Source of the DNA: a virus
DNA length: 64,000 nt
IMG/VR virus record: IMGVR_UViG_3300036791_000379
Location: 5,021 to 69,020 of that record
Direction: 5' to 3' (one strand)
Shown here: piece after piece, positions 16,262 through 17,923 of the stretch
How positions within the stretch are numbered: the stretch's first letter is position 1
Layout: each line of letters opens with the position of its first letter
Position numbers and translations under genes: made by a program
The notes under the pieces: generated by a model
The model's database searches: none
What the model was told of the DNA's origin: nothing
The model's input: the letters and a program-made list of their open reading frames with translations, nothing else

Positions 16262-16480
16262 GCCATCAACGGTGAGAGCGCCATACTCGCGGAGCGAGCC
16301 AATGCAGGGAAGAGCACCAACGACCCGGAGCGAGCCAACCTCGGTGAGCGCACCAAAAAACGGGAGCGAGCCTTATCCACGAGCGCACCAGATTTCGTGA
16401 GCGAGCCTATCCCGGATGAGAGCACCAAAGTCGAAGAGCGAGCCGAATATGCAGAGAGCACCAGATAGTATGAGCGAGCA
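16259..16480 (+). repeat. TIGR-like dual-repeat array, block 1 (about 6 units of 36 nt)
   Basis: alternating GAGCGAGCC and GAG(A/C)GCACC 9-mers separated by 8-10-nt variable spacers. Confidence 0.9.
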
Positions 16481-16976
16481 AACCGCACCATTGAACAAGA
16501 ACGAGGTCGACGAGCTGGTCGATCGCCTCGACAGTCTGCTTGTCACCGGACTGTCGCAGCTCCGGAGCGGCAACGCCGACGAAACACTGATGGTGCTGCA
16601 GGAGGCGCTGCAGACGGCGCAGCGGCTCCCGATGAAAGCCGACTCCGACGAGAGCGTCATCACGATCGAGCAGCTGACCAAGGACGAGCGCTTCCTGCTC
16701 GAATGGCTGAGCAAGGAAGACTTCAGTCAATATGGAGAATGCCACGGCAAATCGCTCGACGGGCTGATCGCCAAGGGCCTCGCCCAGCTCCACGGCGCGG
16801 AGACCGAGCGCAACAACACGTTCATCGCCAAGGGCGACGGCATCATGTTCCGCGCAGTATCGCTGACCGAAAAGGGCTGGGGCCTGATCAAGGAAATGCG
16901 ATCATGTTGTACGACCCACACTTCTGGATCGGAATCGGAATCGGGACCTTCCTCGGGGCCAACTTCGGCATCCTGA
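16470..16976 (+). CDS. cargo protein inside the array, possible C-terminal winged helix
   Basis: ATG 16470 overlaps the last block-1 repeat; LTKDERFLLEWL...LIAKGLA...VSLTEKG. Confidence 0.65.
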   Translation: MSEQTAPLNKNEVDELVDRLDSLLVTGLSQLRSGNADETLMVLQEALQTAQRLPMKADSDESVITIEQLTKDERFLLEWLSKEDFSQYGECHGKSLDGLIAKGLAQLHGAETERNNTFIAKGDGIMFRAVSLTEKGWGLIKEMRSCCTTHTSGSESESGPSSGPTSAS

Positions 16977-17131
16977 TCATGGGCATAATGATGCTGGGCA
17001 AGGACGAACCGGCAGTCCCGCCGTTGCCCTCGCCGCCACGCGACGACGTCGAAGCCTCCGGCGATCATCATGATCACCGGCTGGCACCGGACTATCCCGG
17101 CGAGAAGCAGCGGCTGGAATGGAAACGGTGA
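16904..17131 (+). CDS. small membrane cargo protein inside the array
   Basis: MLYDPHFWIGIGIGTFLGANFGILIMGIMML hydrophobic segment; TGA stop overlaps the first block-2 repeat. Confidence 0.55.
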   Translation: MLYDPHFWIGIGIGTFLGANFGILIMGIMMLGKDEPAVPPLPSPPRDDVEASGDHHDHRLAPDYPGEKQRLEWKR

Positions 17132-17923
17132 GCGAGCCCGCGTCCATGAGAGCACCAAGCTGAGCGAGCGAGTCACTACAGCTGAGAGCGCCAAGTAAAA
17201 TGAGCGAGCCGATCCCACGATGAGCACCATGGATGATGAGCGAGCCGACATGCGCGAGAGCACCACCATAGTCGAGCGAGCCATGCTTCGTGAACGCACC
17301 AAGTTGAGCGAGCGAGCCAATGAAATCCGCGAGCGCCAAGGCACATGAGCGAGCCGTTACGCAGAGAGCACCATCACAGAGGAGCGAGCCAAAGGAGTGC
17401 AAGGACACCACACTCCACCGAGCGAGCCGAGCGCATTGAGCGCACCAACATGAGTGAGCGAGTCAATGATGCCGAGAGCGCCATTGGGATGAGCGAGCCA
17501 TTGATACCGAGCGCACCAAAAATAGAGAGCGAGCCGTGACGCGGAGAGCACCAAGGCGAAGCAGCGAGCCATTCTATCCGGGAGAGCACCACATCCTCGG
17601 AGCGAGCCGGGATGACCGAGAGCGCCACATCCAGTGAGCCCAATACAAGAGAGAGCACCGTAGCGCTGGAGCGAGCCATCACGCAGGAGAGCACCGAGAA
17701 ACGAGAGCGAGCCATGCGAATGGAGAGCACCACATCCTCGGAGCGAGCCGGTTGGGAAGAGAGCACCGAAAAACGAGAGCGAGCCGGTCCTGATGAGAGT
17801 ACCGAATTAAGGGAGCGAGCCACACGAGCAGAGCGCACCACGCACCATGAGCAGCCGAGCACATCGAGAGCGCCATCGAGATGGAGTGAGCCAACGTCAG
17901 GAGAGCACCAAACACGTTGAGCG
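17130..17923 (+). repeat. TIGR-like dual-repeat array, block 2 (about 22 units of 36 nt)
   Basis: same GAGCGAGCC-N9-GAGAGCACC-N9 periodicity, e.g. repeats at 17130, 17166, 17202, 17238, 17274 and 17669, 17705, 17741, 17777, 17813. Confidence 0.92.

Follow-up and report, generated by a model that had tools for sequence, protein, structure and literature searches.

A TIGR-TasA locus divided by two genes

The DNA stretch studied here, referred to below as the window, comprises bases 5021–69020 (64 kb) of a 96,181-bp IMG/VR virus record and carries, at 15395–17923, a TIGR-TasA locus in which all elements lie on the same strand. These are arranged in the order tas, a sub-array of 6 repeat units, a module of two open reading frames (ORF1 and ORF2) and a further sub-array of 22 units (Table 1). 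An earlier note on this DNA had described an array split by about 650 bp with two ORFs, and this is indeed the organization found, with 649 bp (16481–17129) standing between two runs of a 36-nt unit.

Table 1. Features of the TIGR-TasA locus and its neighbourhood, in window coordinates.
Feature	Position	Strand	Remarks
AlpA-like helix-turn-helix (HTH) gene	15013–15402	+	Overlaps the start of tas in a same-strand, operon-like run; Pfam Phage_AlpA, phrog_66
tas, 288-aa TasA (assigned)	15395–16261	+	Nop domain only
Left TIGR sub-array, 6 units	16260–16480	+	AGCC (16261–16264) at its start, GAGCGAGCa (16472–16480) at its end
ORF1, 168 aa	16470–16976	+	Predicted N-terminal helical hairpin and MarR-like winged-helix domain
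tigRNA-like unit	16637–16672	+	In the ORF1 reading frame: AGCC, 9 nt, GAGAGCGTCA, 8 nt, GAGCA
ORF2, 75 aa	16904–17131	+	One transmembrane helix, then a Pro-rich charged tail
Right TIGR sub-array, 22 units	17130–17923	+	Full edge repeat (17130–17138) first, 3' half GAGCG (17919–17923) last
Small HTH gene	18004–18201	+	Downstream of the array
Phage tyrosine integrase	18197–19528	+	Pfam Phage_integrase, E 7e-12; ~270 bp downstream of the array

The tas product matches the NCBIfam family NF052498 (TIGR_Tas_endo) with an E value of 1.4e-60 and 204.9 bits (cutoff 100), together with Pfam Transposase_20 and phrog_4285 of PHROGs, and Pfam returned no match to an HNH or RuvC nuclease domain in it. A profile built from 36 Tas homologues matches PDB chain 9mty_A (E 1e-19), deposited simply as a transposase IS116/IS110/IS902 C-terminal domain protein, as well as the solved TasH chains (E 1e-12), and its alignment to nuclease-bearing PDB chains begins only at about chain residue 121–125. 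Since the protein lacks a detectable nuclease domain and the profile aligns past the nuclease part of these chains, we assign it on sequence grounds to TasA. PADLOC gave no match for Tas, ORF1 or ORF2.

Throughout the 28 units of the locus, GAGCGAGCC and GAGAGCACCA alternate every 18 nt with a period of 36 nt, and the two spacers of a unit measure 9 and 8 nt; in the left sub-array the copies of GAGAGCACCA start at 16274, 16310, 16346, 16381, 16418 and 16454. The array as a whole begins with GAGCC at 16260 and ends with GAGCG at 17919. In the window and in its relatives with the same repeats, each sub-array opens with ..AGCC, 9 nt and GAGAGCACCA, and closes with GAGAGCACCA, 8 nt and GAGCG.., and the copies flanking the module are both full or nearly full (GAGCGAGCa on the left, GAGCGAGCC on the right). 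We set about 195 array starts and ends against 1,026 internal units: at array starts, positions 1–5 of the repeat that borders the arrays are conserved in 41–67% of cases (66–85% in internal units) and positions 6–10 in 71–94%, the array ends give the mirror image, and family-wide the break in conservation falls between positions 5 and 6. Because the sub-array ends carry half of GAGCGAGCC and the conservation profile breaks at that point, we assign GAGCGAGCC as the edge repeat and GAGAGCACCA as the loop repeat. The predicted mature tigRNA of 36 nt would thus read AGCC, 9 nt, GAGAGCACCA, 8 nt, GAGCG, and conservation places the putative Tas cleavage at GAGCG/AGCC. This profile agrees with Faure et al. 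(2025, PMC12045711), according to whom arrays open and close with truncated edge repeats and processing takes place in the middle of the edge repeat.

The locus resembles the dual-repeat TIGR-Tas systems of the TasA subtype in its Nop-domain Tas, its alternating edge and loop repeats, its 36-nt unit with spacers of 9 and 8 nt, its truncated array ends and its phage context. An Rfam search of 14800–18300 gave no match at E values up to 1. Self-targets were sought in the 96-kb record using four strand arrangements of spacer A and spacer B, gaps of 0–6 nt and at most one mismatch, and their number (0) was no different from that obtained with shuffled spacers. Within the right sub-array, in the region 17382–17428, one unit of 38 nt has two self-complementary spacers (GGAGTG / CACTCC) and, unlike nearly all other spacers, is conserved in L102, one of the related loci considered below. 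The 36-nt unit, equivalent to 12 codons, is poor in stop codons, and for this reason several frames stay open along the array and long spurious ORFs appear, at 17612–17920 (+, 102 aa) and 17374–17976 (−, 200 aa).

The two-gene module and its shared codons

Neither ORF1 nor ORF2 matches a family in Pfam, PHROG or NCBIfam. Residues ~66–147 of ORF1 are conserved, at 44–73% identity, in 23 database proteins, in which the C-terminal domain alone is covered; homologues occur in 13 viral contigs, and in all the domain recurs in more than 35 proteins and loci. The AF2 model of ORF1 has a pLDDT of 81 and its top Foldseek matches are all members of the MarR family and weak (E 0.02–0.2, probability 0.98, TM 0.3–0.5), the atlas structures matched being of the PadR, MarR and HxlR types. 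Given the weakness of these matches, the MarR-like winged helix modelled for the C-terminal domain is to be read as a resemblance of fold only.

The N-terminal part of ORF1 has a different relative. Its residues 3–59, predicted to form a helical hairpin, are 39% identical (BLASTP, E 4e-12) to a stand-alone 73-aa protein of locus L098 (L098:12343–12561), which was found in an all-against-all comparison of cargo ORFs; a word-based search of shorter proteins had returned no stand-alone homologue of the ORF1 N-terminus. As the alignment begins within 3 residues of both N-termini, it supports the ATG at 16470, or a start very near it, as the real start of ORF1. Codons 1–64 of ORF1 show a guanine-plus-cytosine (GC) content of 0.69/0.34/0.84 at the three codon positions, which is typical of coding sequence. 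The tail of ORF1 overlaps ORF2 by 73 nt (16904–16976), where a coding-type position-specific GC content is seen in the ORF2 frame only; judging from its composition, the tail beyond 16904 is not under selection in the ORF1 frame.

ORF2 is predicted to encode a small membrane protein, and its ATG is preceded, 8 nt upstream, by AAGGAA. Its product is 70% identical over the full length to protein P0145, with the same C-terminus, and ~45% identical to P0147 and P0149, and it differs from its counterpart in L102 by an in-frame 6-nt indel. The homologues, the codon-position GC content, the confident fold, the in-frame indel and the retention of the pair in a further locus (L211, see below) make it very probable that ORF1 and ORF2 are both genes.

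ORF1 also contains a unit that resembles a tigRNA, with 16 matches at 19 fixed positions. This is the top score outside the array on both strands of the 64-kb window, in which the next-best units comprise one with a score of 15 and four with 14. The unit sits at the joint of the two homology-defined parts of ORF1, its first bases fall in codons (K-A-D) for which the L098 protein has homologous residues, and it may be the relic of a sub-array that once separated two genes. The preceding stretch, 16481–16636, was considered as a decayed array and rejected as such, since it gives only weak matches (11 of 19) and is homologous to the L098 protein.

Genes and repeats share bases at the borders of the module. 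The ATG of ORF1 (16470–16472) is made of the last two bases of a spacer and the G of GAGCGAGCa, the TGA of ORF2 (17129–17131) is made of a T and the GA of GAGCGAGCC (17130–17138), and the stop codon of tas (TGA, 16259–16261) overlaps a 5'-truncated edge repeat, GAGCC, to read TGAGCC; these three overlaps had been pointed out in the earlier note and are confirmed here. [quoted passage not shown]

We have investigated how far such overlaps extend in the family. Across 143 distinct tas contexts, stop codons fused to the 5' half of the edge repeat take the forms TAGCC, TGAGCC, TAAGCC and TAACC, and in ~72 of the 143 (~76 when +16 is counted) the first loop repeat is placed +14 or +15 relative to the T of the tas stop. 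Among other ORFs of at least 45 codons ending no more than 40 nt from a sub-array start, offset −15 (TGAGCC) accounts for 13 of ~47, where a uniform distribution would predict 1/38, and further clusters are noted at −14, −16, −18 and −19. The genes with fused stops are unrelated to each other, and include a YqaJ fusion, the terminase large subunit, a muramidase, an HNH gene, a DUF2303 gene and recT. Stop-codon fusion is a family-wide rule and strongly non-random, affecting about half of the tas genes. Start codons usually lie 20–60 nt past the 3' half repeat, often with a Shine-Dalgarno motif. Of 769 internal units, 6.8% have the dinucleotide AT in front of the edge repeat (in the window, 4 of 23), and ~5 independent cases of an AT+G start were counted among ~110 junctions followed by an ORF; an ATG built from AT and the G of GAGCG is present in the window, at L098:15423, in L162 and in one lineage (L120/L123/L124). 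A rule of start-codon overlap was rejected, this count being no higher than chance, and for the overlap seen in the window direct abutment is the simplest explanation.

A comparable arrangement is found among the related archaeal C/D box guide RNAs, where 23 sRNA genes provide their upstream neighbour with its stop codon, and where the sRNAs have to be cut out of the mRNA and may have an effect on its stability (2018, PMC6009581). As in the window, these guides are bound by Nop-domain proteins and lie on the sense strand directly after a gene; unlike the window array, they are single methylation guides encoded on archaeal chromosomes rather than tandem arrays of DNA-targeting guides in bacteriophages, and they come with no variable cargo.

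Arrays and embedded genes in related loci

The survey covered 156 unique tas loci, drawn from metagenomes, genomes and viral contigs; in the scan of genome contigs, a single-protein query retrieved 0 loci and an alignment query 17. Arrays with the present repeats were detectable in 120 of the 156 loci, all of them on the tas strand. Since arrays were called with fixed patterns and at most one mismatch, these numbers are approximations, and what look like short gaps may be degenerate units. Arrays hug both sides of tas in 19 loci, and genes other than tas stand between sub-arrays in ~16–18 loci, that is, ~15% of the 120, or in 29 by a loose count that includes short gaps.

The same ORF1–ORF2 pair, followed by a homologous array, is present in L102 and L103, which are metagenome contigs, and the ORF2 stop of L102 lies in the truncated form TGAGCC at the same junction. 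The units of the right sub-array are homologous to those of L102, except for an indel of 144 nt (4 units) between two similar units. A diverged ORF1–ORF2 pair with the same gene overlap occurs in L211, a contig of 1,004 nt with no TIGR repeat, and ORF1 homologues are encoded in L104–107 and L197–L210 without TIGR repeats nearby. From these array-free occurrences the module is read as an independent phage gene pair, which stands between sub-arrays in the window lineage. Searches of the tas loci L001–L097 with ORF1 and ORF2 (tblastn), and scans of viral contigs with ORF2 and with a 26-nt cassette word, returned nothing, nor was a copy of the 649-bp unit with the same termini found at unrelated sites in the viral contigs or in the 96-kb record.

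A variable picture results from the relatives L098, L099 and L101, whose Tas proteins are 71–76% identical to that of the window and which share its repeats and its synteny (YqaJ and ERF, small genes, tas, arrays, AlpA-like gene and integrase). L099 has a nearly continuous array with no embedded genes; in L101 three sub-arrays are split by genes for a GerE-type HTH protein, a 70-aa protein and a DUF7694 protein; and in L098 at least 8 sub-arrays are interleaved with ~15 small genes over 6.5 kb. The embedded genes of L098 and L101 are not common to the window, with the exception of the L098 homologue of the ORF1 N-terminus. The comparison of homologous loci suggested in the earlier note accordingly reveals cargo that differs or is absent in the three relatives, rather than a fixed gene.

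Other arrangements were observed in further loci. In L002/L118, recT lies exactly between two TIGR sub-arrays, immediately upstream of tas (L118:8692–9743), with its stop in TAGCGAGCC and its ATG 4 nt after GAGCG. A more distant sub-clade (L091:4789–8301, L064:563–4308 and L063:7062–8170) shows two further features. In L091 and L064 the upstream sub-array begins where a separate HNH endonuclease gene ends, and a conserved protein of 222–248 aa without a Pfam match, 54–67% identical between loci, is encoded between the downstream sub-arrays in L091 and L063 and between tas and a downstream sub-array in L064; these HNH and 222–248-aa proteins may be accessory partners of TasA.

Part of this architecture is already known. 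In the published descriptions (Faure et al. 2025, PMC12045711; Xu et al. 2026, bioRxiv 10.64898/2026.09.09.750476), TIGR arrays are placed upstream, downstream or on both sides of tas, sub-arrays of a stem-loop TIGR system are found ~450 nt apart with an intergenic region between them, and arrays between tasParB and tasA, as well as tigRNA units inside tas, are described. Unlike the TIGR-Tas systems described, the window and ~15% of the surveyed loci hold variable, unrelated genes between dual-repeat sub-arrays, and the fusion of gene ends to half edge repeats is the rule. A keyword search of the TIGR literature, as far as its text was accessible, gave no paper on TIGR arrays interrupted by cargo genes, and no account of variable, unrelated accessory genes in dual-repeat arrays or of a stop-fusion rule was come across in it.

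As for the surroundings, genes for RecT or ERF and for YqaJ lie upstream of tas in the window and in its relatives. A second, orphan TIGR array (L109) of ~23 units with the same repeats is located on the minus strand of the virus record (G000:~1270–2130), ~3 kb before the window start and 19 kb from the sole tas of the record, on the opposite strand to it; it is tightly bracketed by ORFs, with an ATG 2 nt past the terminal GAGCGAA. Between the array and the HTH gene at 18004, two direct copies of C(A/G)TATACGACA, spaced 31 nt apart (17934–17989) and operator-like in appearance, adjoin the region's sole promoter-like site. The motif TTCGGGCACAC..GGGCACAC occurs three times just downstream of the integrase gene (19474–19496 and 19707–19741), and these copies may be integrase arm or attachment-site repeats.

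Proposed origin and expression of the mosaic

We interpret the window, with a probability of roughly 0.7, as carrying the TIGR-TasA locus of a temperate phage, in which accessory genes alternate with parts of the dual-repeat guide array to form a mosaic operon that is reshuffled by recombination at the repeats. The mosaic would be made and remade by recombination within arrays, which offer identity blocks of 9–10 nt every 18 nt, possibly with the help of the RecT- or ERF-type annealing proteins encoded just upstream, and its visible outcomes would be unit-level indels, such as the four-unit indel relative to L102, and the gain or loss of gene modules. Each sub-array is complete in itself, opened by a 5' half (AGCC) and closed by a 3' half (GAGCG), and these half repeats would persist at the sub-array ends because they are the sole parts of the terminal repeats kept in the mature 36-nt tigRNA. 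Stop codons (T+GAGCC, T+AGCC, T+GAGCGAGCC) and the occasional start codon (AT+GAGCG) share repeat bases because the genes abut half repeats without intergenic DNA.

A parallel is offered by phage morons and by the exchange, module by module, of accessory regions in phages at short conserved boundaries. The locus resembles them in its variable small genes near the integrase and attachment end, its mosaic character and its RecT- or ERF-type recombinases; unlike in morons, the boundaries in the window would be functional guide-RNA arrays, and its genes have no detectable transcription signals of their own.

In respect to expression, no plus-strand promoter-like or terminator-like site was found in 14800–17960, and the elements lie on the same strand with no such signal between them, which makes a single transcript from tas to 17923 most likely. 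Tas should cut both flanks of the module, because both edge repeats are full length there, and cleavage in the middle of these repeats would free a cargo RNA of ~658 nt (16477–17134). This RNA would retain ORF2 together with the ribosome-binding site (AAGGAA) and stop codon of that gene, and would lose the AUG of ORF1, for which the next in-frame starts are TTG at 16491 and ATG at 16590. Maturation of tigRNAs and translation of ORF1 would thus compete on each transcript. The release of cargo mRNA by array processing, as proposed in the earlier note, is plausible from the anatomy of the locus, but the predicted cut at GAGCG/AGCC would sever the ORF1 AUG, so that release and translation from 16470 would be mutually exclusive.

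A number of points weigh against this interpretation. No relative was found that combines shared flanking spacers with an empty site, and spacers are nearly all unshared: when the 22 well-delimited units of the window were compared with 2,623 units of other loci, only L102 and L103 shared any. Recombination at the repeats is deduced and not observed, and identity blocks of 9 nt are short for homologous exchange. The dN/dS values of the module against L102 (0.46 and 0.59, the latter for ORF2) are only moderately below 1 and derive from few codons. Co-transcription and the position of cleavage are both read from the sequence alone. The rho-independent terminator expected after the array was not detected, a simple consensus scan giving no plus-strand site in 14800–18300, although according to Faure et al. 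(PMC12045711) such a terminator is typical rather than defining. The same source states that Tas processing needs full edge repeats, and the truncated-repeat junctions of relatives may not be cut by Tas at all.

The alternative that survives best, less probable than recombination of the repeats though by no means negligible, is that the small genes are residents of the variable early region and that TIGR units were seeded or duplicated into the gaps between them, forming independent arrays around fixed genes. The arrays on both sides of tas in 19 loci are in keeping with it, as are the arrays that abut core phage genes (recT, the YqaJ fusion, the terminase large subunit, muramidase and HNH), the orphan array 19 kb away on the other strand of the same record, and L212, a prophage without tas but of similar synteny, which has an ORF2-like gene in the same early region. 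However, the closest Tas relatives (L098, L099 and L101) lack ORF1 and ORF2, which are hence not fixed, and no mechanism for seeding TIGR units is known. The two explanations also overlap in that either route yields the same mosaic and the data give no direction; in fact, spacers turn over too fast for an empty site to be recognized, and as a result insertion into one array is not separable from the formation of arrays around resident genes.

Far less credible is integron-like capture, which the earlier note had suggested and which is taken here as the insertion and excision of promoterless cassettes at the repeats by a site-specific recombinase. The locus does share with integron cassettes small genes of varied function, all in the same orientation, separated by direct repeats and variable between relatives, and a tyrosine recombinase is encoded ~270 bp downstream of the array. 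Nevertheless, it differs from integrons in lacking attC hairpins, IntI, attI and Pc architecture, and its repeats are functional guide-RNA repeats. Neither at nor across the junctions (16470–16490 and 17120–17140) is there an attC-like inverted repeat or hairpin, and the integrase scores 25.9 bits on TIGR02249, against a cutoff of 265 bits for integron integrases, and has AlpA/Xis-like genes for neighbours, the setting seen in ordinary prophages. In many loci with embedded genes the vicinity holds no integrase, and the half repeats at the junctions match tigRNA ends, which would be explained by selection on terminal tigRNAs. The locus is not integron-like.

Still less likely is a small non-autonomous mobile element with a target duplication of 8–9 bp (GAGCGAGC), as the 8-nt direct repeat that does flank the 649-bp insert is the array's own edge repeat, the L102 junction has TGAGCC instead, and the insert is coding end to end, with neither terminal inverted repeats nor a transposase. 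We equally discount the idea that the 649 bp are a degenerate or spacer-like non-coding stretch with coincidental codon overlaps, for although arrays of the family are open in several frames, as in the spurious ORF at 17612–17920, and Pfam, PHROG, NCBIfam and PADLOC match neither ORF, this is contradicted by the spread of the ORF1 domain, the 70% homologue of ORF2 and its in-frame indel, the coding-type codon-position GC, the confident ORF1 fold and the pair kept in L211.

Returning to the mosaic operon, it is conceivable, if rather doubtful, that the array also serves as RNA punctuation for the accessory operon, with its repeats acting as portable homology for swapping gene modules. If true, TasA cleavage at codon-fused edge repeats would decide which neighbouring messages stay translatable. 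The cut would moreover split the tas stop codon in about half of the family (T/AGCC, TG/AGCC), yielding a non-stop tas mRNA and negative autoregulation; such an autoregulatory loop through the straddled stop codon is speculative.

There are also practical consequences for annotation. Array finders built for a single contiguous array will arrive at too few units, while gene callers will overlook gene ends packed against repeats and will report spurious ORFs within arrays. The first description of TIGR-Tas systems dates only from 2025. The present results indicate that in one large phage clade the arrays are routinely interleaved with variable accessory genes, and that the stop codons of tas and of its neighbours are built into the first tigRNA, which links guide biogenesis physically to the expression of adjacent genes and suggests testable ideas on autoregulation and on the movement of arrays and gene modules.

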